From an uncultured virus (IMG/VR IMGVR_UViG_3300042257_000362) (lineage: Duplodnaviria; Heunggongvirae; Uroviricota; Caudoviricetes), in the IMG/VR virus record IMGVR_UViG_3300042257_000362, positions 1-64,000 of that record: a stretch of 64,000 nt of DNA. The stretch is one strand, 5' to 3'. Below, piece after piece: positions 44,480-60,357 of this stretch; position 1 is the first letter of the stretch; the number at the start of each line of letters is the position of its first letter. Under the pieces are notes generated by a model. The model made no database searches, was not told the DNA's origin, and worked only from the letters and a program-made list of their open reading frames with translations. The position numbers and the translations under genes were made by a program.

Positions 44480-44944
44480 TTATCTTACTTTTTTCATAAA
44501 TGCTTCAAGTTGCTTAGTTTTAGGATTTTCCAAAATGTCTGGTTCACCATGTTCGATAATATGTCCGTCATCTAGAAAGACAACATAATCAGCAAAATCT
44601 TTTACAAAACTTATAACATGGGTGACAAAAATAAAATCTTTTCCTAACCCCTTTAATTCTTCAATAGCTGTTAAAACCTCATCAGTTAAAATAGGATCAA
44701 GAGAAGATGTTGGTTCATCTAAAAAGACAATATCAGGATTCATAGCAAGTGCTCTTGCAATTGATGCTCTTTGTGCCTGTCCTCCAGAAACATTTCTCGG
44801 TAGTTTATAGTGTTGATCTCTAAGATGTAGAAGATCTAGATACTTGTCAGCAATTTGTGATGCTTTTTCTTCATCAACTTTTCTTGTTTTTTCTAAAACC
44901 AATGTAATATTTTTCTTAAGTGTTAAATGAGGAAAAAGATTATG
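44480..44944 (-). pseudogene. 5'-truncated polar amino-acid ABC ATPase (GlnQ-like)
   Basis: HNLFPHL, VSGGQAQR, FLDEPTSSLDP, FVTH present; Walker A half absent. Confidence 0.85.
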
Positions 44945-45097
44945 GAAACATTCATAACCAATCTAAAAAAATCAGAAAATGAACTATCTGATTGGAATGT
45001 ACGAATATGGATGCTTATGGTGGAAAGTGCAACTGTCCATAGGAATTCGAGTATAACGTTTAGGTTTCGCAATGGAGTCTCTATAAAAATTAACTGA
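44942..45097 (+). pseudogene. 3' remnant of large serine recombinase 2 homologue
   Basis: METFITNLKKSENELSDWNVRIWMLMVESATVHRNSSITFRFRNG matches MKAFIASLSESEDKLDEWNERIWMLLVDGATVHRDSSITFKLYNG. Confidence 0.92.
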
Positions 45098-45124
45098 GTC
45101 GCTTGAAAAATAGCGACTTTTTTT
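45097..45124 (+). terminator. Intrinsic terminator
   Basis: AGTCGCT...AGCGACT plus T-run. Confidence 0.75.
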
Positions 45125-45189
45125 GTATTTTTATAATTAAGAAAATATGTTATAATTTTAGTTAAGAGAATATCTTGGAGGACCACATC

Positions 45190-45651
45190 ATGGATAACTA
45201 CGAAGTTGCAATCAATGGGACTACTTTAGCTGCACAGATTCTAGGTATAGAAACTCCTGATGTGCAGTTTTTTTATAACCAAGATTTAACGGAAAAAGGG
45301 ATCAACTCCATTTTTCTAAAGGATAAATATATCATAGCATTTAATGAAGAGTGGATAGAGCAAGCAAATCAAGTGGAAATTCTAATCACTTGTTTCCATG
45401 AGAGTAGACATGCACTCCAATGGAAAGTTATAACTGGTGAGTACACCGGAACTGAAGTAATAGATCCAATGACGATTCATAAATGGAAAGATGAAATGAG
45501 CAATTACAATTCACCTACAAAAAAAGACATTCCAGAAGAAGAATATCTAAAGCAGGCGATTGAGATTGATGCTATAGCATTTGCACATAAGATGATGTTA
45601 GAACATTTTGGGGTAAGAACTTATGTACCAAATATGATTGAAAATAAATAA
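45190..45651 (+). CDS. HExxH zincin-like metallopeptidase
   Basis: CFHESRH and EIDAIAFA; start re-assigned to 45190. Confidence 0.75.
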   Translation: MDNYEVAINGTTLAAQILGIETPDVQFFYNQDLTEKGINSIFLKDKYIIAFNEEWIEQANQVEILITCFHESRHALQWKVITGEYTGTEVIDPMTIHKWKDEMSNYNSPTKKDIPEEEYLKQAIEIDAIAFAHKMMLEHFGVRTYVPNMIENK

Positions 45652-45681
45652 AAAATATATTTAGAAATGAGGGGATAAATC

Positions 45682-46014
45682 ATGAAAAAAACTAATAGTA
45701 ACAAAGGAATCTTATATTTAATTCTAATTGTAAACGGTCTATATTTAGCCATTTCATTCATTGCTTATTTGATAAAAATGAGTACTTATCCTATCAGTGC
45801 GAATATTATAGATTTTCTATACTTAATACCATATTTAGCAATTGGAATAATTATAAGTGTGGGACTCTCATTGTATTTCTATAAAAAGTATGAACGACAA
45901 AACATTGATATCATCGAAAAATCAAAAGTTTTCCTATTGGTTAATTTACCTAGTTTTATTATGTTTGATTTAACCATCTTTATTATATTGGCTATGGTGA
46001 TTCAAGTAGATTAA
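45682..46014 (+). CDS. Small membrane protein (about 3 TM)
   Basis: Hydrophobic segments; GAGGGG RBS. Confidence 0.65.
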   Translation: MKKTNSNKGILYLILIVNGLYLAISFIAYLIKMSTYPISANIIDFLYLIPYLAIGIIISVGLSLYFYKKYERQNIDIIEKSKVFLLVNLPSFIMFDLTIFIILAMVIQVD

Positions 46015-46046
46015 CTTCAAATAACATCATGTGAAGAGGTGGTTTA

Positions 46047-47573
46047 ATGAGATTTGAAATATGGGATGCCATTAGGATAGAAAATTTAACCAGTAAAGAA
46101 AAACTGCTATGGTTTGATACACTAAACTATGGCTTAGAGGAAGACAGAGGATACAAATTAAATGATCCTAATATTCAAACAATACAAGAGTCGATTAGAG
46201 AAGATTATATAACTTATTTGGAAGAGTGTCATAAAAGCAAGTTATTTCATTCGTATTTTGTGTTGTATGATAATTCTGTTATTGTGTCATTGTGTCGAGT
46301 GATTTTGAATGAACAAGGACAATATTTAGTTGAAGGATTAGAAACACACAGAAGCTATAGAAAACGAGGTTATGCAAAAGCCCTAGAGAATCGCGTTTTT
46401 GAAGTTCTCAATAAGAGTAATGTAAAAACAGTATTTGCAAAAGTGTCAAAACATAATGAAGAATCACTTGCATTTCATTCAAAAATGGGCTATGAAGTTT
46501 ATTCTGAAACAGATAGTGAATACTTGCTGCAATATAAAATACCAAGTGAAGAAGATAATATGCTAAGAATTAAGTTGATTAATCTAGTTCTTAATTCTTT
46601 TGAATTTGATTATAAACTTGTTGATTTTCAAACATATTATAACTATATCAATTTTGAATCTGATCCTATCCAAGTCAAGATTATTGCTAAAGTAACTCTA
46701 AGTAATCAACGAGAGTATGTTATTAGAATTTTAAGAGAAAATCATATTACATTCGATGAAATAGTAAAACAAAATGAGTTATCTGAGATTTTTAGAGCAA
46801 ATGGTATTAATACACCGAAGAAGTATAATTTTGAGGGAAAACTTGTGAAAAAAATCTATCATAATAACTATATGATGTATGCTACTATTGAAGATTACGT
46901 AGGCGATCACATAAAAAAGCTGAACAAGAACACTTTATATGAATGTGGTAAATTACTTGCGAAAACTCACAAAGTTTCTGAAGAATTAACTCTCTCCATA
47001 GAATCAGATGGATATGTATATAATTTTGCAGGGAAAAACGAAGTAGTCTTAATTGACAAACTTGTTGATTTATCCATTAAATTCAATTTTGAAACAGATA
47101 AAATTAAGAAAATACATCAACTATATCTTCTAAAACATAAAAGAATCGTTAAAGCGTTAAATAACTTAAAGCGCTATGCTGTACAAGGAGATTTGAACAC
47201 AAATAATATTAGCCTATATAACAATGAGTTATGGTTATATGACTATAACATTGCCTGTAATGAATATTTTGTTGTTATGTTAGCAATAGATGCATTAATG
47301 ATGATTTACGAGGAAGAATTCGAGGAGTACTTATCAAAAGAGGATAAATTTAGGACTTTTATTTCAGGATATAAATCAGTTAGAACTATGAATGAATCTG
47401 AAGAGTTATTGTTACCACAAATATTTGAATTAGCTGATACATTGTGGTTTTCAAAAATTCATATCAGGAAGACATCACTTGAAAGACTACTTGATAAAAA
47501 TGAAATAGACAAAGCAAAAACTTTAGTTGATGAAATTTATATAAATTTAAGTGCTGCAGTAGACTATATATAG
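46047..47573 (+). CDS. GNAT acetyltransferase / APH-like kinase fusion
   Basis: YRKRGYAK and NEESLAFHSKMGY (GNAT); QGDLNTNN and LYDYN (kinase). Confidence 0.75.
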   Translation: MRFEIWDAIRIENLTSKEKLLWFDTLNYGLEEDRGYKLNDPNIQTIQESIREDYITYLEECHKSKLFHSYFVLYDNSVIVSLCRVILNEQGQYLVEGLETHRSYRKRGYAKALENRVFEVLNKSNVKTVFAKVSKHNEESLAFHSKMGYEVYSETDSEYLLQYKIPSEEDNMLRIKLINLVLNSFEFDYKLVDFQTYYNYINFESDPIQVKIIAKVTLSNQREYVIRILRENHITFDEIVKQNELSEIFRANGINTPKKYNFEGKLVKKIYHNNYMMYATIEDYVGDHIKKLNKNTLYECGKLLAKTHKVSEELTLSIESDGYVYNFAGKNEVVLIDKLVDLSIKFNFETDKIKKIHQLYLLKHKRIVKALNNLKRYAVQGDLNTNNISLYNNELWLYDYNIACNEYFVVMLAIDALMMIYEEEFEEYLSKEDKFRTFISGYKSVRTMNESEELLLPQIFELADTLWFSKIHIRKTSLERLLDKNEIDKAKTLVDEIYINLSAAVDYI

Positions 47574-47592
47574 TATTTGAAGGAGGTTCATT

Positions 47593-48249
47593 ATGGCAGA
47601 TTTATATGGAAGAACTTATGAATATGTAACTAGAGCAGAATTGTCGCCAGCAAGAGAGCAAATAGAAAAAATTATTGGATCTCTGCATACAAAATTAAGA
47701 AAAGAAGGCGTAACATTTGAACACAAACTTATTGGTAGTGTTGGAAAGAATCTAGTGACAAAAGTAGTCGGTGGAAACAAAGGATTTGACTTTGACTATA
47801 ACTTTGTTATTCAAAAAGATAATGACTTAGAGGCAAAAGAATTACGTCAATTATTCGTTCGTAAACTTGAGGAAATTGTTGCTAAAACCAATTATAAGAC
47901 TGTTTCAGATGGAGAACAATCATTTACAATTAAAGTGGTTGATAAAAAGAAAAGCCAAATCAAATATGGATGTGATTTCGCTATAGTGAACGAGTATATA
48001 GATAATCAAAACAACTTCAGACAGCAAATACTTGTCAAGCATTCAAACAACAACTACGGTTGGGAAGATAAGCCTATTGCAAAGAATTATTCTACCAAAG
48101 TTTCAAATCTAAAGGCTAACGGTTTATGGAATGAAGTTCGAGATGAATATTTGAAAGTAAAAAATAACAATAGAGATGGAAACAAGAAATCATATACAAT
48201 GTATTATGAGGCTGTAAATAATGTGTACGGTAGATATCGCTGGGTCTAG
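47593..48249 (+). CDS. Nucleotidyltransferase, cGAS/DncV-like catalytic core
   Basis: LIGSVG, DFDYN, third Asp in CDFAI. Confidence 0.72.
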   Translation: MADLYGRTYEYVTRAELSPAREQIEKIIGSLHTKLRKEGVTFEHKLIGSVGKNLVTKVVGGNKGFDFDYNFVIQKDNDLEAKELRQLFVRKLEEIVAKTNYKTVSDGEQSFTIKVVDKKKSQIKYGCDFAIVNEYIDNQNNFRQQILVKHSNNNYGWEDKPIAKNYSTKVSNLKANGLWNEVRDEYLKVKNNNRDGNKKSYTMYYEAVNNVYGRYRWV

Positions 48250-48973
48250 CCCTTTGGTAACTAAACTCTCACTTGATATTTCAAAGGACGATTTCGTTTC
48301 AAGGATGGAGTTTGAAAATGAAAAGGAACGAGATCGGTGTTTGCAGTATCTTGACCTAAAGGGAGTAGCATACCATACAGTATTAGTCAATTATATAGGA
48401 CTTAATAAAGATGGAAAGATCCAATATAAAAGAGTTCAGAACTTATACATTTATGACAAAAGGGTAAGAAATATACTCTATCGATTTTTGTCTGCTCTAG
48501 AAGAGGGAATTAGAGGTTTCATTGCAAATAAATATTGTGGAAAATTAGATAACATTAAGAAACTTTCTAAATCAATTCATAAGTCGATTACTGAGGGTAG
48601 CAGTCTCTCGAAAGAATTAGAAGATCTTGATTTTAATAAACTGATGAATCTTACAAAAAAGCTTACTGTTAAAGAGAAAAGGTCCTTGTTTGGTAGAACA
48701 GATAGACTTGAAGAGAATTTGCTTGCAGTTAAGCAGCTAAGAAATGCAGTAAGCCATCATAGAATGTTATTTGTCTATGAAGACTTATATGAATGCTATT
48801 TTGAGGATGGAACAATAGGTGATTCGCTTATGGATAATATTGTGAATCTCAGACAACTATTGAATCCATATTATATAGATTTCTTTACTAAGGCAATCAA
48901 CAACAGTTCAGTTGATGAAAAAGATTTAACTTTTGTAACCACATTGCCTGATAAAGCAATTTTACATTTTTGA
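48221..48973 (+). CDS. Abi-family (AbiD/F-like) HEPN ribonuclease
   Basis: LYIYDKRVRNIL...LEEGIR and RNAVSHH (RxxxxH); start uncertain. Confidence 0.8.
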   Translation: MCTVDIAGSSPLVTKLSLDISKDDFVSRMEFENEKERDRCLQYLDLKGVAYHTVLVNYIGLNKDGKIQYKRVQNLYIYDKRVRNILYRFLSALEEGIRGFIANKYCGKLDNIKKLSKSIHKSITEGSSLSKELEDLDFNKLMNLTKKLTVKEKRSLFGRTDRLEENLLAVKQLRNAVSHHRMLFVYEDLYECYFEDGTIGDSLMDNIVNLRQLLNPYYIDFFTKAINNSSVDEKDLTFVTTLPDKAILHF

Positions 48974-49011
48974 GATAGCCTTTATATGATATAGTTTTGG
49001 GAGGAAAAGAT

Positions 49012-49530
49012 ATGAGTTGGGAGTATAATGAATATACAAAACCGTGTCCTTGTGGTAAAGGATTAATAAGAGTTGTAGATGGTTCAAATGACTGGGGACA
49101 AACATCTCATGATGAAACCATTTTATGTCCTGAATGCAAAGAAAAAGCAAAAGTAGCAAGAGCTCAAAAAGAAGAGAGATTCAGAGTTGCTAATAACAAG
49201 ATCTCACTAGCAGTTTCTTATTTTAGAGATAACTACTCTCATTTATTAGAGAGTAAATTTGAGAATACAAAAAGTAAAAAAGCTATTTGGCAGGTTGCCT
49301 ATGATTTAGGTATAGAAACTCAAAGCCTTGCAACTTTTTATAAACATTTTATTTCAAAAGAAAAATACATTCACGGTCTGATTTCTTGGTATAGAATACA
49401 CTCGATTATTCTTGCTCTTGAAATAAAGGATCAGAGACTTGAAGAGTTATATAAAGATGCTAAAGCTCATATTAAAGAGTTTGATGATGAACGTGCTGCA
49501 GCTGCCTACATGTATTATAAAGGTAGGTAA
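49012..49530 (+). CDS. Zinc-ribbon hypothetical protein
   Basis: CPCGKG...NDWG...CPEC; own promoter and GGAGG RBS. Confidence 0.7.
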   Translation: MSWEYNEYTKPCPCGKGLIRVVDGSNDWGQTSHDETILCPECKEKAKVARAQKEERFRVANNKISLAVSYFRDNYSHLLESKFENTKSKKAIWQVAYDLGIETQSLATFYKHFISKEKYIHGLISWYRIHSIILALEIKDQRLEELYKDAKAHIKEFDDERAAAAYMYYKGR

Positions 49531-49567
49531 ATGACGATAATAAAAGGTATTATAGGGGGTTGGTTAC

Positions 49568-50857
49568 ATGAAGTATATGAGTTTTAATCGATCGTGTTCA
49601 TATACATGTTTGGCTTATATGATAGGGGATTATGGTTTGAATTATACGGATAAAGATATAGCACTTGAAATGAAACTGGCATATCTTTTATATAATGACT
49701 CAAAGAATAATGAATATCTATCAGGTGCAATGTTACAAGGGAAGAGATGGTTTGATTTATTCTTGAATCGTCATTCTTTTGAGTTTATTGAAGACGAATA
49801 TAAGAAAAATGTTGCGTTATCTGTCATTAAGAATTCTAATAGAAAATTAATGGTGGGGATAAATTTAAAAACCGGTAAACACGCTATGGTTTATTGTCCA
49901 TCAGAAACACAACTGTTTAGATTCTTTAATCCTCATTATGAGAATGATGGTGTTGCTGACTTTTTTGTCTATTCAGAACAAGAATTACTTGATCTTCTAG
50001 ATGATGAGGTGACTATTGGCTACATTAATCATAATCCGAGAATTACTGTTCCTGAGCTTGAACTATATGGTCATTCATGTGGTTATCTAGATAAATATGT
50101 GGTAGACATAATTGAATTTTGTTCGATTGAACATACACTTGATGAGATAGGAGAAGTAAAAGAATCATTGTTTGCTGGACTATTACTTTCACCAATACCA
50201 TTGTTAGAATTCGAGGGAGAGAACGAACTTGTTGATTGCCTTAAAAAACTACAAACAGACTTTATTCGTGCCCTTCGACAAACAAAAACTAGTATTAGAC
50301 TATTAGATTATTTTAATCCTTTAGAGCTTAATGCATGTGTTAGGAAGTATAAGGAATCAATTAAAAGGAAAGCAATGCTGGACAGTTTAATTATCAGAAA
50401 AGCTACAGATGAAGATGCAGAAGGAAAAGGATATGTTCATTATCAAAGTTGGATTGAAACATATACTGGTCTTTTTCCTGATGAAGTTATGGCAAGATTA
50501 TCTTTAGAAAAGAATATACAATTAGCAAAAGACTATCCAGAGAACACATATGTTGCCATTGTAGATAATAAGATTATTGGATTCTGTTGCTATCTTGAAT
50601 CAAGAGATGATGATTTAGAAGATACTGGCGAAATTGTGGCAATATACATATTAAAGGAATATCAAGGTCTCGGTATTGGAAAGCAATTGATGGAAGTATG
50701 CTATAAAGAATTAAGTAAATATTCAAAACTATCACTATTGGTACTTGGAAGTAATAAGAAATCAGTAGGTTTTTATGAGAAACAAGGGTTTATTGCTGAT
50801 GGTAAAACAAAGATACTTCATGGAAAAGAAGTTATTAGAATGATTAAGAGTTTGTGA
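49568..50857 (+). CDS. C39-peptidase-like domain fused to GNAT
   Basis: SCSYTC...HAMV...FFNP; C-terminal YQGLGIGK...FYEKQGF. Confidence 0.65.
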   Translation: MKYMSFNRSCSYTCLAYMIGDYGLNYTDKDIALEMKLAYLLYNDSKNNEYLSGAMLQGKRWFDLFLNRHSFEFIEDEYKKNVALSVIKNSNRKLMVGINLKTGKHAMVYCPSETQLFRFFNPHYENDGVADFFVYSEQELLDLLDDEVTIGYINHNPRITVPELELYGHSCGYLDKYVVDIIEFCSIEHTLDEIGEVKESLFAGLLLSPIPLLEFEGENELVDCLKKLQTDFIRALRQTKTSIRLLDYFNPLELNACVRKYKESIKRKAMLDSLIIRKATDEDAEGKGYVHYQSWIETYTGLFPDEVMARLSLEKNIQLAKDYPENTYVAIVDNKIIGFCCYLESRDDDLEDTGEIVAIYILKEYQGLGIGKQLMEVCYKELSKYSKLSLLVLGSNKKSVGFYEKQGFIADGKTKILHGKEVIRMIKSL

Positions 50858-50866
50858 GGTGATGAC

Positions 50867-51331
50867 ATGTTTTCATTCTTCGAGTTTGATGATCTAACTG
50901 ATGGTGAAATTAGATTAGTAGTTGATGAGTTGATTCCAGAAGACAAAGAAAAAGGTTTTGTTCCAGCATATAAGTTTAACATTGTAGAAGAAAAATCAGA
51001 TCTGAAAGTTGGTTTTATTGATGTCAGAATTGGACATAATAAAGGTTTGTATTATGGTGGCAATATTGGATATACAGTATATGAAAAACATAGAGGACAT
51101 AATTACGCTTTAAAAGCATGTAAATTAATAAAGAATGTTGCTATCAAACATAACATGGAATATCTATATGTTACTTGTAATCCTGATAACATAGCTTCAA
51201 GAAGAACATGCGAAAAGTTAGGGTTACCTTTGCTAGAAATTGTTGAATTACCAGAAGATAATGATATGTATAAAGAAGGTGAAAGGCAAAAGTGTATATA
51301 TTATTGGAGACTTTTGCCTAGATTGAGCTAA
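50867..51331 (+). CDS. GNAT acetyltransferase
   Basis: GGNIGY, HRGHNYA, NIASRRTCEKLG. Confidence 0.88.
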   Translation: MFSFFEFDDLTDGEIRLVVDELIPEDKEKGFVPAYKFNIVEEKSDLKVGFIDVRIGHNKGLYYGGNIGYTVYEKHRGHNYALKACKLIKNVAIKHNMEYLYVTCNPDNIASRRTCEKLGLPLLEIVELPEDNDMYKEGERQKCIYYWRLLPRLS

Positions 51332-51375
51332 AACTACGAAATATTGTAGTAATTTGTTAAGAGAGAAGTGATTAT

Positions 51376-51876
51376 GTGAAAGAAATATCAAACTGTAAAT
51401 ATTGTGGAGGTTCATTATCAACTTAAAGTATCAAAGGAGAGGGAAATATACCATATTGTATGGATTGTGATGAATTGTTCTTTCCAACATCCGATATTGC
51501 AATTTTAGGAATAATCGTAAATGATTCAAATCAAGTTCTTATGTTGAAACAACAAGTAGTTAACGAGTATTATGTTCTCGTTGCAGGATATTACAAAAAA
51601 GGCGAACAATTAGAAGATACACTCAAAAGAGAAGTTTTTGAAGAAACAGGTATTGATATCACAAATATTCAATATCATGGTAATAAATACTACGAGAAGA
51701 AAAATATCTTAATGTTTGTTTACTCTGCAAAGGCTATAACAACCGTTATAAGGATAAACGAATCAGAAGTTGATTCTGCAATTTGGGTTAATTTAGATAA
51801 AGCGATAAAATTAATGAGACCAGGATCAATTGGTGATATAGTTTTAAAAGAATATATTAATCATATTTCTAACTGA
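51376..51876 (+). pseudogene. NudC-like Nudix hydrolase with premature stop
   Basis: GTG start, CKYC...CMDC zinc finger split by TAA at 51424; Nudix box GYYKKGEQLEDTLKREVFEETG. Confidence 0.78.
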
Positions 51877-52031
51877 GATTTTTTCATCAAATCATAAAGA
51901 GTTTCATTATTCAAAAATTATAGAGTTCGATACCCAGCATTAAACAGATAGTTGAATAACCTATTTTGATACAAAGAAATTAATACTAAAAAAATGCAAA
52001 AAATAAAACCTCTAAACTAAGCCATAATTTA

Positions 52032-52080
52032 GGGGTGCAATTTTTTCGGGTGGGGGTGCAAAAATTTTGACTAGGGGTGT
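52032..52080 (+). repeat. Three GGGGTGY repeats, 21-bp period
   Basis: At 52032, 52053 and 52074. Confidence 0.8.
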
Positions 52081-52082
52081 AA

Positions 52083-52138
52083 AATTGTAGCAAAATAGGT
52101 CATACAACCCATATAAGAAGCATAGGTTTGATACAATT
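52083..52138. other. attP-like site of large serine recombinase
   Basis: Inverted repeat AATTGTAGCAAA/TTTGATACAATT, 56 bp, centred on CA at 52110-52111. Confidence 0.75.
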
Positions 52139-52155
52139 GTATCAGGCCTTTTTTT
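52124..52155 (+). terminator. Terminator-like hairpin built on the att arm
   Basis: AGGTT-TGATACAATTGTATCA-GGCCT plus T-run. Confidence 0.6.
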
Positions 52156-52249
52156 ACGCTATATAGGGCCGTTTCACGATTTGCCTCAATTTATCAAGCC
52201 TGAAAAGAGTATCGCTTTTACTAGATTTTGGACATTTCAATAGAATTTC

Positions 52250-52298
52250 TACACGATTATATTTCAAAATACACGATTTAAAATGGATTTACACGATT
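52250..52298 (+). repeat. Three TACACGATT repeats, 20-bp period
   Basis: At 52250, 52270 and 52290; partial CACGATT at 52175. Confidence 0.85.
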
Positions 52299-52426
52299 TC
52301 AGTAATCAAGCCATTTAACAGGTATGCTTGATTTTTTAGTAGGCTACACTATGATTTTATCCATTCAACACCTATCATCAAAATATATAATATGATATAA
52401 TAACGTTGATTATATGAGGTGATTTT

Positions 52427-53392
52427 ATGAAATATATAGCAAAAGAAAAAATTTACATAGACCCTAAACATTTGCTTACATACTATCAAATGACTACAAT
52501 AGACAACATTGAAGGAGCACTAAAGGATTCATTTCTTAACATCCTAGCTGACAATGCTGGATTAATTATGCGAACTGCAGATCTAAAAAATAAATATTTG
52601 GAAAGTCTAAAACAATATGAAAATATTGATATTGAAAGTTTAGAACATAAGTATTCCAATAAAAACTATGTTCAAATTTTTAAGAATTTAACAGGATCCA
52701 ATGTAAAGAATACCACAAACCTCTTGCGAGATAAAAATGTTAACTGGTATTATGGAAAAGGTGAATATGGTAATATTTCCCTTATTGAAGCCAAGTGTAT
52801 AGGATCTACTCAATTGCCACTTGGCTTTGACGAGATAAGAGCACATGGCAATAACTATTTTATATTCTTTAATAATGATGTTTCAAACGATCACCAGCTA
52901 CATGATGAGATAACCACTCTAACTTCTTTGAAGGATTCAATTTCTGATGATACCAAATTAACACAAGAAATTATCACAAAAAGTAGAAATATGAAACTTC
53001 AAAAAATATTTCGTAATAGCTGTTTAACAAAGGATAACTTTAAATGCGCTGTAGATGGTTGTGAAGTTTCTGATGAGCATTTATTGATTGCTTCACACAT
53101 AATTCCAGTTAGTGCAATTATAAAAGATAAAAATATGAGCATAAGTCAAAAAATATTATATATAACTAGTGATTCAAATGGTTTGACATTATGTCCGAAT
53201 CATGATGCTCTTTTAGACAAAAATTATATAACTTTTTCATCAGATAATTCAATTATTTTTCATAAAAAAATTAATAATGATAACAGGAAATCTTTAAACG
53301 TTTCAGGAGTAACAAAGTTAAAGAAACACCGTAGTGATGATGAGAAAATGAAACAGAACTTCGAGATGCTTAGAAAAGTGTTTTTGTCATAA
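52427..53392 (+). CDS. HNH endonuclease (restriction-associated type)
   Basis: CAVDGC, LIASHIIP, NGLTLCPNHDALLD. Confidence 0.85.
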   Translation: MKYIAKEKIYIDPKHLLTYYQMTTIDNIEGALKDSFLNILADNAGLIMRTADLKNKYLESLKQYENIDIESLEHKYSNKNYVQIFKNLTGSNVKNTTNLLRDKNVNWYYGKGEYGNISLIEAKCIGSTQLPLGFDEIRAHGNNYFIFFNNDVSNDHQLHDEITTLTSLKDSISDDTKLTQEIITKSRNMKLQKIFRNSCLTKDNFKCAVDGCEVSDEHLLIASHIIPVSAIIKDKNMSISQKILYITSDSNGLTLCPNHDALLDKNYITFSSDNSIIFHKKINNDNRKSLNVSGVTKLKKHRSDDEKMKQNFEMLRKVFLS

Positions 53393-53455
53393 ACTAATAG
53401 TGAGTGGATTACTGTAATTTAATATGCTATAATCAATACAATGGAGGAGATTAGA

Positions 53456-54559
53456 ATGAGAGAAAACAACAAGTTTTTACAGGATCAAATTATTACTTAT
53501 TTGGGTAATAAAAGAAGCTTGAATCCATATATTGAAAACGAAATAAAGAAAATTAAGAAGTCTCTTAATAAAGACAAGTTGGTTACACTAGATTTATTTT
53601 CTGGATCTGGAATCGTAGCTAGAATGCTAAAAAAGCATTCTGAGAAACTTATTGCGAACGACTTAGAAGAGTATTCTCAAATCATAAATGAATGTTATTT
53701 AAGTAATCATTCAGATTTTGATAGAAAGAAGTACGACTTATATAAAGAAAAACTAGATGATTTATTATCCAATAAAGTATATAAAAAAGGAATCATCACT
53801 TCAAACTATGCTCCTAAAAATGATTTGCATATTAAAAAAGGAGAAAGATGTTTTTATACAACAGAAAATGCACAGATTATTGATACAATAAGAGACTTCG
53901 TTGATACCATTGAAGAACCTATGAAAAAATATTTTTTAGCACCTTTACTATATCAAGCATCTGTTAATACAAATACAGCTGGGATATTTAAGGGGTTCTA
54001 TAAAGATTCATCAACTGGAATTGGAAAATACGGTGGAAACGGTGAGTTTGCTTTAAAAAGAATAAAAGGTAAAATACAAATACTGGAACCAATATTTAGT
54101 AACTTTGAAACTGATGTTTTAGTCACTAGAGAAGATGCTAATAACCTTGTTAAAAGAGAAAAAAACTTTGATGTTGTTTACATTGATCCGCCTTATAACC
54201 AACACCCTTATGGATCAAACTACTTTATGTTAAACTTGATTTTAAGTAATAAAATGCCAGATAATATAAGTAAAGTTTCTGGAATACCAAAAAATTGGAA
54301 CAGGTCAGATTATAATTATAAAGCTAAAGCCCTAAATGCCTTTGATGATTTAATTAAGAATATTGATAGTAAATTTATTATCATATCGTATAACTCTGAA
54401 GGAATAATATCATATGATGAAATGATAAAACTGCTAAAACCATATGGTGAATTAACTATTAAGGAAATCGTTTATAATACTTTTAGAGGTAGTAGAAACC
54501 TTAGTGAACGAAGTTTGTATGTTCAAGAGTATTTGTTTGTTTTAAAGAGGGGGGATTAA
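53456..54559 (+). CDS. Type II N6-adenine DNA methyltransferase (Dam/D12 class)
   Basis: YLGNKRSL, DLFSGSG, YIDPPYN, ISYN. Confidence 0.92.
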   Translation: MRENNKFLQDQIITYLGNKRSLNPYIENEIKKIKKSLNKDKLVTLDLFSGSGIVARMLKKHSEKLIANDLEEYSQIINECYLSNHSDFDRKKYDLYKEKLDDLLSNKVYKKGIITSNYAPKNDLHIKKGERCFYTTENAQIIDTIRDFVDTIEEPMKKYFLAPLLYQASVNTNTAGIFKGFYKDSSTGIGKYGGNGEFALKRIKGKIQILEPIFSNFETDVLVTREDANNLVKREKNFDVVYIDPPYNQHPYGSNYFMLNLILSNKMPDNISKVSGIPKNWNRSDYNYKAKALNAFDDLIKNIDSKFIIISYNSEGIISYDEMIKLLKPYGELTIKEIVYNTFRGSRNLSERSLYVQEYLFVLKRGD

Positions 54560-54560
54560 A

Positions 54561-55271
54561 TTGAGTCAAAGAGAATCGTTGAGAGAAAGATACGAGCAAC
54601 ACAAACCTAAAAACACTAGATCTAAAAAGACAGATAAGGCTATTTATTCATCAATGGAAGCTGTTATTGAATATTTACATCATAGATTTAAAGGGATGTT
54701 GGATGATTATGAAATCACATTCGAGAAAAATATCAAAATAGATTATATGATAAAATTCATAAAGCAAAAAGGTATCAGACTAGAGTTTGATTATGACTTT
54801 GAAGATCGTAAAATCATCCCTGATGGAGGAGTGCTGTTCTTAAATAAAAAGTCTTCAGAAGAGTTGAAAAAACCGTTACTTATTTCTGAAATCAAAGTAC
54901 AAGGAACTAATAAAAAAAGACTTAAAGAGGGGAAAACGAAACAAGCTACAGGTAATGCCATTGAACGTTTAGGTAAGAACTTAACTGGAATTAAAGCAAT
55001 GATGAATCACGAGAAGATTACTCCATTTGTTTGTTTTGGACAAGGATGTGATTTTGCTCCAGAAGTGAAGACAGTTTTAGCTAAAGTTCACATTTTAAAC
55101 GAATTTTATGATTTGAATAGAACACATGTTTTCAAAAAGGATGGTAATTCAGATAACAATTACTATAGTCCTGTCTCTATGTATTTTAGGGAAGAAGACT
55201 GGTCAGAAGAAGAAATGTTTGATATAATGAAGGAAATCGCAGAAACTGCCTTAAGATATTATATCTTTTAA
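54561..55271 (+). CDS. EcoRI-family type II restriction endonuclease
   Basis: PDGG...SEIKVQG and ATGNAIER motifs as in EcoRI. Confidence 0.85.
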   Translation: MSQRESLRERYEQHKPKNTRSKKTDKAIYSSMEAVIEYLHHRFKGMLDDYEITFEKNIKIDYMIKFIKQKGIRLEFDYDFEDRKIIPDGGVLFLNKKSSEELKKPLLISEIKVQGTNKKRLKEGKTKQATGNAIERLGKNLTGIKAMMNHEKITPFVCFGQGCDFAPEVKTVLAKVHILNEFYDLNRTHVFKKDGNSDNNYYSPVSMYFREEDWSEEEMFDIMKEIAETALRYYIF

Positions 55272-55411
55272 TATCATTGAGATCTAAATTCTTTTGAATT
55301 TTGGTCTCTTTTTAGTTATGCTCCATGATGCCATTATCAAATATGTACAAGAATACCTTTTGATGATACAATATAATTGTTAATACGGACAAGGATAAGG
55401 TGGTATTACAT

Positions 55412-56257
55412 ATGATATTAGCCAAAACAATAGAAATTTATTTACCTACAGGAGATGCAAGTAAAGTAAGCCAAGCACGTATAACAACTGAGGCAATTAG
55501 GATTGTATATGTTGCAAAATCGGAAATTGAAAATAGAAAAATTGACCTAGATAATATTGGTTGCTATATTTTAGTTGGTGTCGATTCGGCAGGGGACAAG
55601 ATGGTTTATATAGGTGAATCAGAAAACATTTATACGAGACTACAGGACCACAAAAAGAAAAAAGACTTCTGGGATGGAGTCTATACTATTCAAAATCTTA
55701 GTGGCACATTTGATAAAGCTCATTTGACATATTTAGAACAACTAATGATACAAAAAGCACTTGAGACAGATCGCTTCAAAGTTGAAAATGGTAATGGAGG
55801 GAAATATACATCAATTCCTGAATCAAAGATGAATGAGTGCTTAGTTTATTTTGAGACCATTAAAACACTTGTAAAGGCATTAGGATTCAATGTGTTTGTA
55901 CCTGAAATTGAAAAGGAGCAATTAACTGATGAGACGTACTTCTATTTCAAAAGCAAAGACGACTTGTGGGATGCTCAAGGTGTATATGTTGATGAGAAGT
56001 TTATCGTTCTAAAAGGTTCCATTGCACGATCAGAACCGACAAAACACAAACGAGCTTCTAATGAACTAAAGTTTAGAGATAAATTAATCGATGAAGGTAT
56101 TATTGAAGAACGAAATGGTAGCCTTACTTTCGTTAAGGACTATGGATTTAACTCTCCAAGTACAGCTGCAGATATTGTTTCGTTAGGAAGTAATAGTGGT
56201 TGGAAAGTTTGGAAAACTAAAGATGGGAAAGCACTAGAGGAAGTCTATCCGAGATAG
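55412..56257 (+). CDS. GIY-YIG nuclease with DUF4357-like C-terminal domain
   Basis: GCYIL...VYIGESEN..RL; FNSPSTAA...SGWKVWK. Confidence 0.85.
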   Translation: MILAKTIEIYLPTGDASKVSQARITTEAIRIVYVAKSEIENRKIDLDNIGCYILVGVDSAGDKMVYIGESENIYTRLQDHKKKKDFWDGVYTIQNLSGTFDKAHLTYLEQLMIQKALETDRFKVENGNGGKYTSIPESKMNECLVYFETIKTLVKALGFNVFVPEIEKEQLTDETYFYFKSKDDLWDAQGVYVDEKFIVLKGSIARSEPTKHKRASNELKFRDKLIDEGIIEERNGSLTFVKDYGFNSPSTAADIVSLGSNSGWKVWKTKDGKALEEVYPR

Positions 56258-56285
56258 AAAGTGTTTAATGTGTATGGGAGGAAAT

Positions 56286-56915
56286 ATGAAATCAAAAAAC
56301 TATAAAGAATTAAAGTTCACTGGGATAACATTCACAAGACGTATTTACATGGATGAAGACATGACTCACTATTTTGGATTTGATGAAGATGGTGAAATCA
56401 TAAAAGAAGCAACTGAACCAACTATGATGTTTTCACTCGGTGGGACTAAAGAAGAGTTTGAAAACTTCATTTCAAGGGCAATAGAAGACATAAATATTCT
56501 TAGTTGGAAAGATGAATATAGACCTACTGAAACTGTATTAGATGGTGAAGAATGGAAGATTACCATTCACATAGAAAATGATGACGACATTGAAATATTT
56601 GGAATAAATGCTTATCCAGATAATTTTGTAGATTTCATAGTTCTGTGTACTGAGTTCAACTTCGGACCATATGAGTTGGTTGATGATGAAACTTCATATG
56701 ATTTAGGTGTTGAAGAATGGTATGATGATTTTCTAGAGGAAATTGAGGAATTAGAATCCAAACTTATATGTCCTAAGTGTTCAAGTGATTACATGGTTCA
56801 CACAGATCCAATGGGATATACATTTCTTTGTGGGGATTGTGGAAATGTGTATGAATACGAAGATGGTAAGTTTAAAGCACATTTTGAATTTGAGAAGAAA
56901 GCAAATGAAGAATAG
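56286..56915 (+). CDS. Acidic hypothetical protein with C-terminal zinc ribbon
   Basis: LDGEEW...GINAYP; CPKC...CGDC. Confidence 0.65.
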   Translation: MKSKNYKELKFTGITFTRRIYMDEDMTHYFGFDEDGEIIKEATEPTMMFSLGGTKEEFENFISRAIEDINILSWKDEYRPTETVLDGEEWKITIHIENDDDIEIFGINAYPDNFVDFIVLCTEFNFGPYELVDDETSYDLGVEEWYDDFLEEIEELESKLICPKCSSDYMVHTDPMGYTFLCGDCGNVYEYEDGKFKAHFEFEKKANEE

Positions 56916-56925
56916 ATAAATGAAT

Positions 56926-56963
56926 AGCGACCCAGCTCTTAATTGAGTTGAGTCGCTTTTTTT
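56926..56963. terminator. Terminator between convergent genes
   Basis: AGCGACCCAGCTC...GAGTTGAGTCGCT plus T-run. Confidence 0.72.
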
Positions 56964-57163
56964 TATTTGTCTATATATTCCATGATGTCCTTAAAATCGC
57001 ACTTTAAAGCTTTGCAGATTTTACATAGAACGTCTGTTGTAACATTCTGACCTTTTGTCATTTTTGCTATGGAAGATGAACTTACTCCAGAGAGCTTAAT
57101 GAGCTCTTTTTTATTTAGCCCCTTATCGATTAGTAGTTTCCATAATTTATTATAACTAACCAT
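56963..57163 (-). CDS. Xre/Cro-C1 HTH transcriptional regulator
   Basis: Near-identical to 944..1144. Confidence 0.88.
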   Translation of the reverse strand: MVSYNKLWKLLIDKGLNKKELIKLSGVSSSSIAKMTKGQNVTTDVLCKICKALKCDFKDIMEYIDK

Positions 57164-57174
57164 TAGATTTCCTC

Positions 57175-58977
57175 CTAATTTTTTCTAATGCCTTTTAGTA
57201 ATCCATATCGGCCTTTGTTCTCACTTTTTGTAAATTCTATAATACTAATATTTGGATCGGTGTTAATATCTTTTGAAAGATCACCAGGAACAATGTTTTC
57301 CATAATAATAATTTGATCATCTCCATAATTATTAATAACGTAGTTAAAAAACCCTTTTCTAACGTTTTCATCTTGTTGAACTCCTTCTGGCATCTGTATA
57401 CCATGCAAAGGAGAATCTAATAAATAGAAGTGAGGGTTCTTGATAGCAACTTCATTGATGTATTCACGCATAGAGAGAATCATTATTGAATTGAGTAATG
57501 CTCTTACACCTTTTCCATGTGTCTTTTTTTCATCTCCATTAACAATTATATCGAGTTTAGATAAATCAAATTCCGCTGAATTTGCTGGAGTATATTTACA
57601 TCTCTTTAGTATTGATAGGTATGTCTTATTTATAGTAGAGATAAAATCATCTGCAAATAACTCTTTTGGTTTATATGCACGTTTTTCACTTACCGTAGAG
57701 TCAAGATGGGATAAATCATTCTCAAAGTTATCAAGCAAAGAATTGATTAATTCTAAATCATTCGATGCTTTTACATAGGCTGAGTATTGACTAATTTTTT
57801 GAGTAATAGATACTTTTTGCGGTTTTAATTCGGTGCTTAGCAGATTGTCGATAGATTTCTTTTTCTTTTTCAAATCTTTAAGCTCATCTAAATAACTAGA
57901 AACTTCAAAATCTATATCTATTAGTGTTTGAGATAAAGACATACTGTTATTTAGTATTTTAACAACTTCAGCTCTCGAAGATTCCAAATAAGAAGCTTCT
58001 TGTTCCTTTTCTAATTCCCCATTGCAGAACGGGCAGTTATGTGGTGATTCATGCTTGTGGATTATATCCTCACCTTGAATGATGAAACCTAACCTCTCAA
58101 TGTCAGCAATATATTGAGATTCGAGTGCTTTGTATCTGTTTTGAGTTATCTTTCTTGTTCTAATTAATTCTTCTTTCTTGGTTATCTCGGAGCTTACATT
58201 TCTCATATCATTTATTGTTGATGAAATGAGTGAATTTGTCTTGTCAAGCTCGGTTTGGAGATCTTCAATTAAATTCTCAAGATATGTATTATCTCCATTT
58301 TTCTCAGACAAGAATTTTTCAAGTGAGTCTTTTTGCTGCAAAAACTTTTCTTTATTACTAATGATATACTTTTGAACAGCAGCTCTTTTAGCAGCTTTGG
58401 TTTTTTTATTTTCTTCTGCATCAAACTCTGAATAATCTTGTTCATATAAAATATACAATAAGCATGATAAGAATGAAGTTGTGTTTTGAACAATGTCAGG
58501 AGTCAATATAGGTTTTTCTAACTCAGTATTATCCTCATGTACAAATAGTAGTGGTTTTAGACTTCGAAATGAAAAAGCCTCAGTTTGACCATCTTCATTT
58601 TTAGGTACTTGTAGCGATACAGGTATATCTAATATCTCAGAAAAGACTTCTCTAATGTTATCTTTTTTTCCACTAACTTTATAAATCTTATTCTTTATAC
58701 CATCATTAACGAGAATTTTATTTTCACCGATTTTTCTAGTTAATGTAATATGCGAATTGTCCTTCCTTACTTCCATAGAAATAGTATCATATCCAATTGA
58801 AGTATCAAAAGGTGCGTTCTTATTGCTAGAGCCTAAAAGATAATAAATTGACTTAAACACATATGTTTTACCGGTATCAGAAGGGCCAAAAATCAACGTT
58901 AGGTTTTCACCAAATGTGATTTCTGAGATTCCTTTAGTTCCAGTAAAAGTTAGTTTATTTATGTGAAATTTTCCCAT
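57175..58977 (-). CDS. SMC/Rad50-like ABC ATPase of ABC-3C system, copy 2
   Basis: GPSDTGKT, CPFC hook, YLLDSP. Confidence 0.85.
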   Translation of the reverse strand: MGKFHINKLTFTGTKGISEITFGENLTLIFGPSDTGKTYVFKSIYYLLGSSNKNAPFDTSIGYDTISMEVRKDNSHITLTRKIGENKILVNDGIKNKIYKVSGKKDNIREVFSEILDIPVSLQVPKNEDGQTEAFSFRSLKPLLFVHEDNTELEKPILTPDIVQNTTSFLSCLLYILYEQDYSEFDAEENKKTKAAKRAAVQKYIISNKEKFLQQKDSLEKFLSEKNGDNTYLENLIEDLQTELDKTNSLISSTINDMRNVSSEITKKEELIRTRKITQNRYKALESQYIADIERLGFIIQGEDIIHKHESPHNCPFCNGELEKEQEASYLESSRAEVVKILNNSMSLSQTLIDIDFEVSSYLDELKDLKKKKKSIDNLLSTELKPQKVSITQKISQYSAYVKASNDLELINSLLDNFENDLSHLDSTVSEKRAYKPKELFADDFISTINKTYLSILKRCKYTPANSAEFDLSKLDIIVNGDEKKTHGKGVRALLNSIMILSMREYINEVAIKNPHFYLLDSPLHGIQMPEGVQQDENVRKGFFNYVINNYGDDQIIIMENIVPGDLSKDINTDPNISIIEFTKSENKGRYGLLKGIRKN

Positions 58978-58982
58978 ATAAG

Positions 58983-59420
58983 TTATTCCCTCCTAACAGA
59001 TTCTTTTGTAGCATAATTGATTAATTTTTCATCGGTCCAATTTTGCGTTTTTTGAATAATCAATCTGACACTATCAATATACTTTTTAAAATAATCAGTT
59101 TCCATTTTTTCACAAACCTTACGACCATCCTCACTGATAATATATGTAAATCCATAAGCGTTTTGAAGTGGCATTAGTAATCCGGATAAAACGAGAGTGT
59201 TTATTGATTGGGAAACCTGATATCTTCGTGATGCAATTTCGCTAAAGCTATATGAACTGTCTCCGTGAAGATTAAATTCCAAAAAACCATAGTTTTTTCC
59301 ATAACTTGAAAACAAATCAATAGTTGTAATATGATCAACTGATATTGGAGCTCTCATCACATTTGTTATAACGAGAACTCTTAATGATATTTCAAGTTCA
59401 GAATTAAATATCTGTGTCAT
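58983..59420 (-). CDS. ABC-3C middle component, copy 2
   Basis: IFNSELEISLR; LHGD..SFSEIASRR. Confidence 0.8.
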   Translation of the reverse strand: MTQIFNSELEISLRVLVITNVMRAPISVDHITTIDLFSSYGKNYGFLEFNLHGDSSYSFSEIASRRYQVSQSINTLVLSGLLMPLQNAYGFTYIISEDGRKVCEKMETDYFKKYIDSVRLIIQKTQNWTDEKLINYATKESVRRE

Positions 59421-60357
59421 AATCAACCACCCACTCAATCTTCCCTTCATTAACTAGCATATGAACCATTCCTTGTTTTTCAGGGTTTCCAATAATGCCA
59501 TTATTGTCTCTAGTTAAAATGTTTTTGCTAAAGGTAATATCAACAACTTTTTGCATTGTACTATCAACTCTTTCGAGAGCATTCTTATACTCTTTCATGA
59601 TAGTAATTTCAATACCAGAAAGTAAATCTGCTTTCGCTTCGTTAAACTCGTATTCTCCATCTGGAAATACATCTCTAATTTGATGAAGAACACTCTCGGC
59701 GTTAAAATAATTTTCTCTTTGTAATTTAAAATGTTTTTCATATCTTGGATGCATTGATTTTAGATCAGTTAATGATATTGATCCGAATTTTTCTGATTGT
59801 GCATAGACACGTAGTAAGGCATCAACATACCGTATTTCATTTTTTATTATAGCTTCTGTAGGGACAAGCTTATCTAATAAATTTACTGTCTTACCTCCGA
59901 TTTTAACTTGGTTGTGACCGATAAAAACTGCATCACGTATTGAAGCTGAAGGCTTCACGTTTATAACGTAATAGAGTATGGTATCTAAGACCTTAGTAAT
60001 ATCTTTTTCAAAATTATCAAAAGTTATGGTGAAATTATAAGTCGCAAACTGTGAAATCATTCCATTTCTAGCATCCTCAGAGAGATCTTCTGAAAATATT
60101 TCAAATGTATAATAATCCAAATTTTCTTTTATATAAGAGGCGCAATCTACAGGTAAAGATTCTACTCCATTGAAAACCTTAAGTAAAAACCCATCTTTTC
60201 TCTTCTCGATTGGATTAGCTGAATCCACTGCGGATACAAATGCATTCAAATAAGTCTTTAATTTGTCTGCTTTTGTAACCCTACCAGATTTAGAACCGCT
60301 TAAGACTTTATGACTAAAATATTGTTCCATTATTGATAAAAAATCATTTAGTTTCAT
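59404..60357 (-). CDS. ABC-3C first component, copy 2
   Basis: Homologous to 3385..4341; KQGMVHMLVNEGKIEWV. Confidence 0.75.
   Translation of the reverse strand: MKLNDFLSIMEQYFSHKVLSGSKSGRVTKADKLKTYLNAFVSAVDSANPIEKRKDGFLLKVFNGVESLPVDCASYIKENLDYYTFEIFSEDLSEDARNGMISQFATYNFTITFDNFEKDITKVLDTILYYVINVKPSASIRDAVFIGHNQVKIGGKTVNLLDKLVPTEAIIKNEIRYVDALLRVYAQSEKFGSISLTDLKSMHPRYEKHFKLQRENYFNAESVLHQIRDVFPDGEYEFNEAKADLLSGIEITIMKEYKNALERVDSTMQKVVDITFSKNILTRDNNGIIGNPEKQGMVHMLVNEGKIEWVVDYDTDI

Follow-up and report, generated by a model that had tools for sequence, protein, structure and literature searches.

A junction between neighbouring prophage-type elements, centred on a tRNA-like terminal CA dinucleotide, as a candidate attachment site of large serine recombinases in Acholeplasma-like Mollicutes

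Integration at tRNA genes has so far been credited only to tyrosine integrases and is treated as a hallmark of that family. According to the Islander paper, no integrases outside the tyrosine family are known to use tRNA and tmRNA genes as targets (PMC4383910); a 2026 survey of provirus borders reports, in the excerpt available, that tyrosine integrases prefer RNA targets (PMC13626063); and a review of mobilizable elements, as far as its excerpted text goes, places the sites of serine recombinases inside genes (PMC5704250). In the excerpted part of a study of Prochlorococcus tycheposons and cryptic elements, 27 of the 937 elements carry a large serine recombinase, with no detail on the sites (10.1101/2020.12.28.424599). 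A serine integrase that performs the exchange at the CCA end of a tRNA gene was not found described in the literature searched, with subscription journals and supplements outside its scope. The site analyzed here (positions 52083-52167) might be a case of this kind. It lies in a stretch of 64,000 nucleotides, hereinafter the window, which comprises the first 64 kb of a 99.7-kb contig of an uncultured virus record of the class Caudoviricetes (IMG/VR IMGVR_UViG_3300042257_000362).

The initial annotation described this site as intact and similar to a phage attachment site (attP). It is best read not as the attP of one phage but as a hybrid junction of two elements that follow each other in a tandem array: the left half (hereinafter the P arm) is the end of a degraded cassette, cassette II, and the right half (the P' arm) is the beginning of a tailed prophage, prophage III. 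The reading that is preferred here, with a probability of roughly 0.72, is that the site joins neighbouring elements that integrate by means of large serine recombinases at the terminal CA of tRNA and tmRNA genes and that form arrays with P/P' junctions between consecutive members. The hosts are wall-less, Acholeplasma-like Mollicutes. The original observation is confirmed, and its central idea, namely a serine recombinase attachment site with crossover in the CA of a tRNA CCA end, no duplication of the tRNA and a terminator supplied by the element, is well supported in silico by comparative data.

At 11 of 12 positions, the two arms that define the site, AATTGTAGCAAA (52083-52094) and TTTGATACAATT (52127-52138), mirror each other as reverse complements, and their midpoint falls between C52110 and A52111, i.e., in the CA of the CCA at 52109-52111. 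The 56-bp site with 12-bp inverted arms is therefore correct as originally described, in coordinates and in letters; a repeat search extends the arms to 15 nt at 87% identity (52080-52094 and 52127-52141, with 32 nt between them). The P core arm of cassette II (AATTGTAGCAAAATAGGTCATACAACCCA, 52083-52111, plus strand) has near-identical counterparts in a complete chromosome (G085), and the CA at the dyad centre (52110-52111) is the putative crossover dinucleotide. The P' arm at the left end of prophage III (52112-52167, plus strand) consists of the spacer TATAAGAAGC, a hairpin (52124-52149) and a T-run from position 52149. The hairpin starts 13 nt after A52111, in agreement with the palindromic, terminator-like structure that had been noticed about 13 nt past the CCA. 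A covariance model built from P' sequences of relatives scores 52112-52167 at 77.4 bits (E-value 7.7e-13), and the sole other match in the window is the reverse-strand echo of the same site. Three 11-nt direct repeats, TAGGGGTGCAA, TGGGGGTGCAA and TAGGGGTGTAA, which are spaced 21 nt apart (52030-52082, plus strand), abut the P core, and three TACACGATT repeats are located downstream of P' (52249-52300, plus strand). Two further points of the initial annotation hold as well: a CCA is present at the right end of prophage I, the first element of the window (43240-43242), as it is at the end of the tRNA-Ser gene (557-559), and, beyond the CCA, there is no copy of the tRNA 3' end at 43242 or 52111.

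The site is conserved. Searches with LSR2, one of the two large serine recombinases (LSRs) encoded in prophage I, yielded 72 loci in viral contigs and 54 loci in a set of genomes with one genome per species; the latter are titled mostly Acholeplasma, Acholeplasmataceae, Izemoplasmatales, Mariniplasma, Liberiplasma or 'Tenericutes'. The whole site is present in many of these related loci and shows a distinct architecture. The P arm contains 2-4 phased GGGGTGCG-type repeats, followed by AATTGTAT, about 18 variable nucleotides and the CA; direct repeats of this kind, 2-4 in number, precede most of the related P arms. The P' arm starts, after the CA, with TAT(T/A)GAA..ATAGGTTTGATACAATTGTATCAGGCC and continues into a run of seven T residues. 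Among the 44 distinct P/P' sites (those with a non-tRNA left side), the mirrored match between the 12-nt arms averages 8.59 of 12 positions in the register centred between the C and the A, compared with 2.6-4.1 for a right arm displaced by 1-3 nt. The P' model finds matches in 109 of the 151 sampled genomes of the order, with up to 10 matches per genome.

The position of the exchange can be approached by comparison of related junctions. Identical P arms with different right sides (L079 compared with L030 and L082) diverge straight after CCCA, and, conversely, the P' arms of L153 and L234 are identical over their first 44 nt, from the CA through the T-run, while the left sides share only the CA. 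The base before the CA in the 44 P arms is A in 26, C in 14, G in 3 and T in 1, i.e., other than C in 30 of 44, so that the identity between a P arm and the ..CCA end of a tRNA is mostly limited to 2 bp. The right flanks that follow the CA of P arms vary from the first bases on, often contain a hairpin and T-run of their own, unrelated to those of P', or lead into the next tRNA gene, and in these respects resemble native tRNA flanks. Taken together, the dyad centre, the breaks of the junctions and the shared identity of 2 bp point to a crossover at the CA. Serine integrases recognize dyad sites of about 50-56 bp with a central non-palindromic dinucleotide, and their attP and attB share about 2 bp of identity. 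An imperfect dyad and an overlap of about 2 bp are what is found here in silico, and the combination of the 2-bp overlap, the dyad of about 56 bp and the lack of a duplicated tRNA fragment fits, by analogy, the serine integrase pattern. The tRNA T-loop was considered as an outer binding motif of the chromosomal half-site and rejected: the resemblance of AATTGTAT to GTTCRAAT is weak by eye, and the left arms of tRNAs match at 3-7 of 12 positions in the P register.

The left neighbours of P' are either tRNA or tmRNA genes or P-type arms. In viral contigs, P' directly abuts the 3' ends of tRNA-Leu(GAG) and tRNA-Gly(TCC) as predicted by ARAGORN, twice; further ARAGORN predictions place it directly after tRNA-Leu(TAG) in three loci and after tRNA-Gly, and, in two genomes, after tRNA-Ser(CGA) (G001) and tRNA-Ser(GGA) (G002). 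A census of left neighbours was made for the 30 best loci of the order-wide P' scan, which are not a random sample; 32 hits of the hidden Markov model (HMM), minus one reverse-strand echo of the palindrome, give 31 sites. At 16 of these, the left neighbour is the 3' CCA of a tRNA (13 sites; Gly-TCC, Ser-GGA, Ser-CGA, Leu-GAG, Leu-TAG, Leu-CAA, Ala-GGC and Val-GAC) or a tmRNA (3 sites), and at the remaining 15, it is a P-type arm that ends in CA. The latter comprise 8 P arms identified by HMM, 3 P-like arms recognized by eye (L259, the second site of L268, and L272) and 4 variant arms that end with ..ATGACA(A/T)GA and then CA. Thus, none of the 31 sites has an unrelated left side, and the insertion of homologous elements at non-tRNA sites, which had been named as the outcome that would speak against the original idea, is not seen on the P' side in any of them. 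Overall, the targets of P' include nine tRNA species and tmRNA.

Empty and occupied versions of one target are available in relatives. In G161, one contig contains tRNA-Ser(GCT)..CCGCCA followed by P' (TATAAGAAGC..), and another contig contains a P arm, ..CAACCCA, followed by TCAATT and then by tRNA-Glu(TTC). G052 and G119 have the uninterrupted arrangement ..CCGCCA/TCAAT/tRNA-Glu, with letters nearly the same as in G161. Thus, comparison of the occupied and the empty loci indicates that, in G161, the DNA bounded by P' and P sits exactly between the CCA of tRNA-Ser(GCT) and the native spacer. A search from the tRNA-Glu side in 81 genomes of the family, from which 24 loci were taken, finds tRNA-Ser(GCT) a few nucleotides before tRNA-Glu in 15 loci; of the others, 7 represent a different tRNA-Glu locus, 1 is G161 itself, and 1 (L308) has the same upstream letters without an ARAGORN call. 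Another empty target is present in G001, where a tRNA-Gln/tRNA-Ser(GGA) pair is 95% identical to the pair in the window. In that genome, tRNA-Ser(GGA) is empty and leads into unrelated sequence; the gene that carries an insertion is the next one, tRNA-Ser(CGA).

The hairpin of P' has the properties of an intrinsic (Rho-independent) terminator, namely a stem-loop, a U-run and compensatory changes. Its arms (52124-52136 and 52137-52149) effectively form a stem of 11 bp that encloses a loop of 4 nt and leads into seven T residues, and the predicted RNA fold has an energy of -15.5 kcal/mol (z-score -3.78), with none of 200 shuffled sequences as stable. Pairing of the stem is retained in 95.9% of the cells in the alignment of 31 distinct P' sequences, compensatory changes are observed in 5 of the 11 pairs, and the columns of the T-run are invariant. 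None of 500 shuffles reaches the observed covariation on any of five measures, and a slid partner gives only 32-46% pairing. These features fit a role of the P' hairpin as the replacement for the terminator of the tRNA. The 5' half of the stem also holds the mirrored recombinase-arm motif TTGATACAAT, which is invariant in sequence, so that the P' arm seems to double as a binding site and a terminator.

Prophage I encodes two recombinases that are compatible with this anatomy. LSR1 (35878-37191, plus strand, 437 aa) and LSR2 (37169-38764, plus strand, 531 aa), the latter overlapping the end of the former, each match PF00239 (Resolvase), PF07508 (Recombinase) and PF13408 (Zn_ribbon_recom) above the cut-offs and match the integrase family PHROG 95. 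The AYARVS motif of both proteins aligns with the solved catalytic domain 3g13; its serine is presumably the nucleophile. No other recombinase family was detected by Pfam among the 47 open reading frames (ORFs) of prophage I that were scanned. The possibility that LSR1 and LSR2 are orthologues of the Ccr recombinases was rejected: the CcrA, CcrB and CcrC models all score far below their cut-offs, the best being CcrB with 162 bits for LSR1 and 118 bits for LSR2 against a cut-off of 900 (NCBIfam). The small ORFs upstream of LSR1 (35411-35936) gave just SHOCT_2 and a sub-threshold NCBIfam match, no search for a directionality factor having been made. Across 126 related loci, an LSR1-like gene is located directly upstream of 101 of the 113 LSR2-like copies; 4 of the other copies have no room upstream, and 8 have room but no LSR1-like gene. 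Accordingly, the two-recombinase system proposed initially stands as the rule but not as a universal requirement, since some sites of the same type come with an LSR2-type gene only. For example, in L212, a tRNA-Gly/P' junction at 5834 and a P/P' junction at 12088 bracket a 6.2-kb element inside which only an LSR2-type gene is present. In A. laidlawii 8195, there are four P arms, but the LSR2-type gene is devoid of its N-terminus and no LSR1-type gene adjoins it; Liberiplasma polymorphum has three P arms and a full-length LSR2-type gene. A P arm is found downstream of 28 LSR2 genes at distances from 210 nt to 9.8 kb (median 4.5 kb), and for 48 copies, there is too little downstream sequence to judge. 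LSR1 and/or LSR2 are thus candidates for the catalysis of the exchange at these sites.

The junctions occur in arrays, one of which can be followed in a complete chromosome. In G085, P' comes after a cluster of tRNA-Glu, -Arg, -Pro and -Gly(TCC) genes; more P/P' junctions are located at distances of 3.9, 5.2 and 16.3 kb from there, together with a P arm at a distance of 10.5 kb. The genes in these cassettes encode SatD, a methyltransferase, a helix-turn-helix (HTH) protein and GNAT acetyltransferases. A large GNAT gene paired with a small one is found before the site in the window and, likewise, before P arms in G085 that are nearly identical to 52057-52111. Cassette II is thus of a widespread kind of recombinase-less cassette that keeps its cargo and its P arm. 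Prophage III is itself bounded by two junctions: a second complete P/P' site is present at its right end in the parent contig (P end at about 15288-15336 of locus L026), where the right flank is about 70% identical to 52112-52290 over more than 150 nt, and a further element starts there. The simplest reading of these arrays is that the tRNA half-site remains the target, so that each newcomer is added on the tRNA side of the elements already in place. A separate observation is the close succession of junctions in some loci. In L090, a single P' is preceded by three P arms in the space of about 250 nt (minus-strand ends at 627, 503 and 427), which looks like the loss of entire cassettes between successive junctions, and in L216, two junctions are just about 480 bp apart.

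Under the preferred reading, the attP of each element would consist of its P arm, the central CA and its P' arm. Exchange at the CA with a tRNA gene would then produce tRNA-CCA/P' on the left and P-CA followed by the native flank on the right. The tRNA would keep its full sequence, and the P' hairpin with the T-run would replace its terminator. As the tRNA half-site would be left intact, later arrivals could insert at the same tRNA and give rise to a tandem array, with internal junctions formed by P of element n and P' of element n+1. The hybrid site in the window could still be active at present.

Several points limit this scheme or speak against it. The action of the recombinases on these sites is proposed from sequence data. 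The bare inverted repeat is within chance expectation, with 12 repeats in the window compared with 8.1 +/- 4.1 in 20 block shuffles (12-nt arms, at least 11 of 12 matches, gap of 20-44); because it is no rarer than chance, the significance of the site rests on its conservation among relatives. The window contains only one canonical junction, the one at tRNA-Ser being truncated and the sequence from 43243 onward being neither P' nor a demonstrated tRNA flank. In single cases, including the triad of G161, G052 and G119 with its shared CCAT, a neighbouring dinucleotide is possible as the point of exchange. Five loci (L058, L206, L212, L223 and L226) lack any LSR1-like gene, and the pair is therefore not strictly required; for 25 LSR2 copies, the HMM detects no P arm although the sequence continues for at least 3 kb downstream; and no LSR homologues are present in the 36.5 kb of the G085 array, most cassettes of which thus could not move themselves. 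No listed Logan contig (the assembled contigs of public sequencing runs) spans the whole site. Finally, the formation of arrays calls for a departure from the textbook rule that only attP and attB recombine: recombination of attP with attL or attR is not known for canonical serine integrases, and hybrid P/P' junctions in chromosomes are unexpected under that rule.

In an alternative reading, the element ends are real, but the exchange is due to a different enzyme or to homologous recombination between conserved P and P' sequences, and linkage alone accounts for the presence of the recombinase genes. It is favoured by the arrays that lack an LSR gene, by the 25 LSR2 copies without a detected P arm and by a variant arm (..ATGACAAGA followed by CA) that uses the same P', and repeated P and P' sequences would be good substrates for homologous recombination. 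However, homologous recombination cannot produce a tRNA-CCA/P' junction from an empty site, a Pfam scan of 70 ORFs of the window gives no match to tyrosine integrase families, and LSR1 and LSR2 are the sole recombinase families in the 47 ORFs scanned in prophage I. The 2-bp overlap, the dyad of about 56 bp and the lack of a target duplication are also unlike the tyrosine integrase islands in tRNA genes as these are characterized in the accessible text of the Islander paper (PMC4383910). This alternative is considered unlikely.

Still less likely is that the site is a plain attR, with a phage arm as the left half, a native tRNA flank as the right half and nothing attP-like about it. The resemblance of the right half to a tRNA terminator, together with the fact that true right flanks often carry a hairpin and a T-run, would be accounted for in this case. 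However, the same P' sequence of about 45 nt follows eight tRNA species and tmRNA in different genomes, whereas the native terminators after tRNA-Glu differ between species. Furthermore, TACACGATT repeats and mobile cargo come after P', a second P' with a homologous flank of more than 150 nt is present at the right end of prophage III, and there is no tRNA to the left of P' in the window.

Least probable of all is an assembly chimera formed at a repeat that is shared by many elements of the metagenome: it would agree with the summed depth in four runs, which climbs from about 30 to values of 160-480 within 52074-52155, as expected of a multi-copy repeat, and with the lack of a spanning contig noted above, but in the possible source run, overlapping pieces free of differences tile 51500-52041, 52012-52103, 52083-52147 and 52126-52700 at similar depth (about 30-34), and P/P' junctions of the same kind are present in chromosome-level assemblies (G085, L189 and L216). 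Four public runs contain parts of 51500-52700 in their Logan contigs, and loose ends from other runs connect P' with the tRNA-Ser-like 3' end ..TCCTCCGCCA or ..GTTCAAATCCCCTATCCTCCGCCA, recognized as such by eye, and with variant arms.

The left end of prophage I (560-43242) departs from the scheme proposed for its relatives. Here, tRNA-Ser(GGA) (469-559, plus strand, predicted by ARAGORN), with its CCA at 557-559, provides the chromosome-side (B) arm of the junction. The sequence that follows (560-899, plus strand) is atypical and consists of TATTGA, the palindrome TTGACAAGTTTGTCAA and a 5'-truncated gene. TATTGA, immediately after the CA of tRNA-Ser, is identical to the first 6 nt of the P' consensus, with no further likeness to P'. 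The truncated gene has codons at 561-896 and a stop at 897-899 but no start; its 112 aa align at 98% identity with residues 146-257 of a 257-aa protein, and a large protein search identifies 38 longer homologues of 209-259 aa, whereas no relative was found in the fetched related loci, five genomes, Pfam or PHROGs. The CAT before the frame also fits a histidine of the homologue, which places the break at or just before the CA. These data suggest a deletion from the start of P' into the truncated gene, and prophage I may be unable to excise.

On the right, prophage I ends with a P arm (43183-43242, plus strand) that contains GGTG-type repeats, AATTGTAT at 43214-43221 and CCA at 43240-43242. The terminal sequence ..AATTGTATTAAAATAGGTTACATATTCCA (43214-43242) shares homology with the left half of the site, as do the repeats upstream of each; the homology stops after the CA, and the P-arm HMM matches here as well. 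No degenerate P' was detected at 558 or 43241 at E-values up to 10 with filters off. The attB that the initial annotation assembled from the tRNA-Ser end and the sequence from 43243 onward is not borne out, because the latter is not P' by the model and was not found after a tRNA. In five related genomes, 43243-44940 matches only in a fragment of an ABC ATPase gene (72-73% identity), with no match for the first 1.2 kb. No attL of a prophage I-type element was identified in the relatives G009 and G006, the boundary lying inside a gene in G009 and the contig ending at P' in G006.

The order of elements in the window is tRNA-Ser, prophage I, the segment 43243-44941, cassette II, the P/P' site and prophage III. 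Upstream of tRNA-Ser, ARAGORN predicts tRNA-Gln (379-453); no other tRNA is predicted in the whole 99.7-kb contig. According to Pfam searches, prophage I encodes an ABC-3C defence system, a replication module, terminase, portal, capsid and tail proteins and two GGDEF-domain proteins, in addition to LSR1 and LSR2. It also contains a full-length S-adenosylmethionine synthetase gene (15526-16758) that adjoins a fusion of ParB-N and a DNA methylase (13900-15129). The segment 43243-44941, between prophage I and the LSR2 remnant described next, consists of an alpha/beta hydrolase gene and, on the opposite strand, a truncated ABC ATPase gene and may be a rearranged piece of another element; intact ABC ATPase genes occur after LSR2 in prophage III. 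Cassette II (44942-52111), which ends in the P arm of the site, begins with the 3' remnant of an LSR2-type gene and its downstream region (44942-45318, plus strand), which is 70% identical to 38637-39003 and 81% identical to contig positions 97548-97698. Its cargo (45175-51876, plus strand; Pfam) includes GNAT acetyltransferases, an Abi_2-like protein and a NUDIX protein.

Prophage III extends from about 52112 to beyond the end of the window and is colinear with prophage I, at 66-88% identity, with the DNA homology starting at 56917; its LSR pair is located at contig positions 94168-97709. The left-end cargo of prophage III occupies 52427-60357 (Pfam). The first part of it, a restriction-modification block (52427-56257) between P' and the ABC-3C system that is extra in prophage III, encodes HNH_2, a D12 methylase, an EcoRI-like protein and GIY-YIG/DUF4357. 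A three-gene ABC-3C system (AAA_23-like ATPase, MC2 and CTD6) occupies the same left-end position in the two prophages, on the minus strand (1155-4341 and 57175-60357), with a DNA identity of just 66%.

The arms themselves have additional features in relatives. The phased GGGGTGCG-type repeats with a spacing of 21 nt are found immediately outside the P core not only at 52030-52082 but also at 43183-43213 and in most relatives. The attP sites of serine integrases are not known to require accessory sites; possible ligands of the repeats are a directionality factor, a regulator or either of the two recombinases. Downstream of P', ACACGAT motifs are present in at least two copies within 450 nt, with at most one upstream, at 13 of 31 related P' sites. 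The TACACGATT repeats likewise lie downstream of P' in a subset of elements (including L087, L233 and L234), with almost none upstream, and look operator- or iteron-like. In L087, they are followed by an open frame starting with MNFKDKLVFARAKLNLSQAELAKELN that appears HTH-like by eye. The variant left arm mentioned above, with GTGACAA/GTCACAA-type repeats and the end ..ATGACAAGA before the CA, is joined to the same P' in L153, L216 (17450), L230 (17490), L252, L254, L261 and L263, which suggests a second recombinase lineage that shares the right-hand arm. Several P arms (L189, L226, L181 and L090) precede a recurring sequence, ACGGAGTTAGTGAGATTTAAACTC.. or GTCGAGTAAAGGGGATTTAAACCC.., for which ARAGORN makes no tRNA call and which may be a tRNA-like fragment or the end of another element. 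Finally, L193 (CP017949.1) is a record of 93 kb whose title describes it as a plasmid of 'Tenericutes bacterium MO-XQ'; it encodes an LSR2 relative at 78% identity and might represent a phage-plasmid or an excised array.

If the proposed mechanism is correct, it amounts to a third way of using a tRNA gene as a landing pad, in which the tRNA remains untouched, the element brings its own terminator and no repeat is formed. Tools that search for displaced tRNA fragments, such as Islander, would by design miss such elements. Such integrases would be small and cofactor-light, with natural targets among the most conserved sequences of the cell, and their activity would explain the build-up of accessory and defence genes beside tRNA genes in poorly studied wall-less bacteria. 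A broader scenario, offered tentatively and with somewhat more doubt than confidence, is that a lineage of serine recombinases has adopted CA ends, that the terminator doubles as a binding arm, and that the outcome is integron-like, tRNA-anchored arrays of defence and accessory genes, to which the P' matches in 109 of 151 genomes would belong.

The present elements can be compared with several known systems. The islands of tyrosine integrases in tRNA and tmRNA genes are similar with respect to the target class, the preservation of a functional tRNA and the formation of tandem arrays; however, as described in the accessible text of the Islander paper, they carry a tRNA fragment and leave the displaced fragment at the far end, unlike the elements analyzed here, in which there is none (PMC4383910). 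In agreement with this distinction, no tyrosine integrase is found in the 70 ORFs scanned, and the P arms share just CA or CCA with tRNA ends. The order of domains in LSR1 and LSR2, Resolvase, Recombinase and zinc ribbon, is that of the integrases of phiC31, Bxb1, A118, TP901-1 and SPbeta (SprA), and solved relatives are matched; the dyad site of about 50-56 bp with a central non-palindromic dinucleotide is also shared with the canonical phage serine integrases. In contrast to the present case, the attB sites of the latter are described as located in protein-coding genes or elsewhere and not at tRNA ends, and those phages encode just one integrase and lack phased repeats next to attP. The resemblance to SCCmec, as far as it is covered in the excerpted text of the source, includes two adjacent serine recombinases of similar size (CcrA and CcrB), the use of the extreme 3' end of a conserved gene and the preservation of that gene (PMC3146451). 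Unlike SCCmec, the target here is an RNA gene rather than rlmH, the hosts are Mollicutes, the elements are phages and the recombinases are not Ccr orthologues. In SCCmec, repeated insertion at the same gene end leads to composite or tandem elements. The ssrA islands of Dehalococcoides, with DsiB (CcrB-like) and the small DsiA, share with the present elements serine recombinases encoded by an adjacent gene pair, the 3' part of tmRNA as the target and tandem arrays downstream in which many members have no integration module, in the account given by the available part of that paper (PMC3146451). Compared with the same partial account, the junction here is placed in the terminal CA, any repeat is limited to 2-3 bp, the targets include nine tRNA species along with tmRNA, the carriers include complete tailed prophages, and the second recombinase, in place of the 200-aa PinR-like DsiA, is a full large serine recombinase of 437 aa (PMC3146451).

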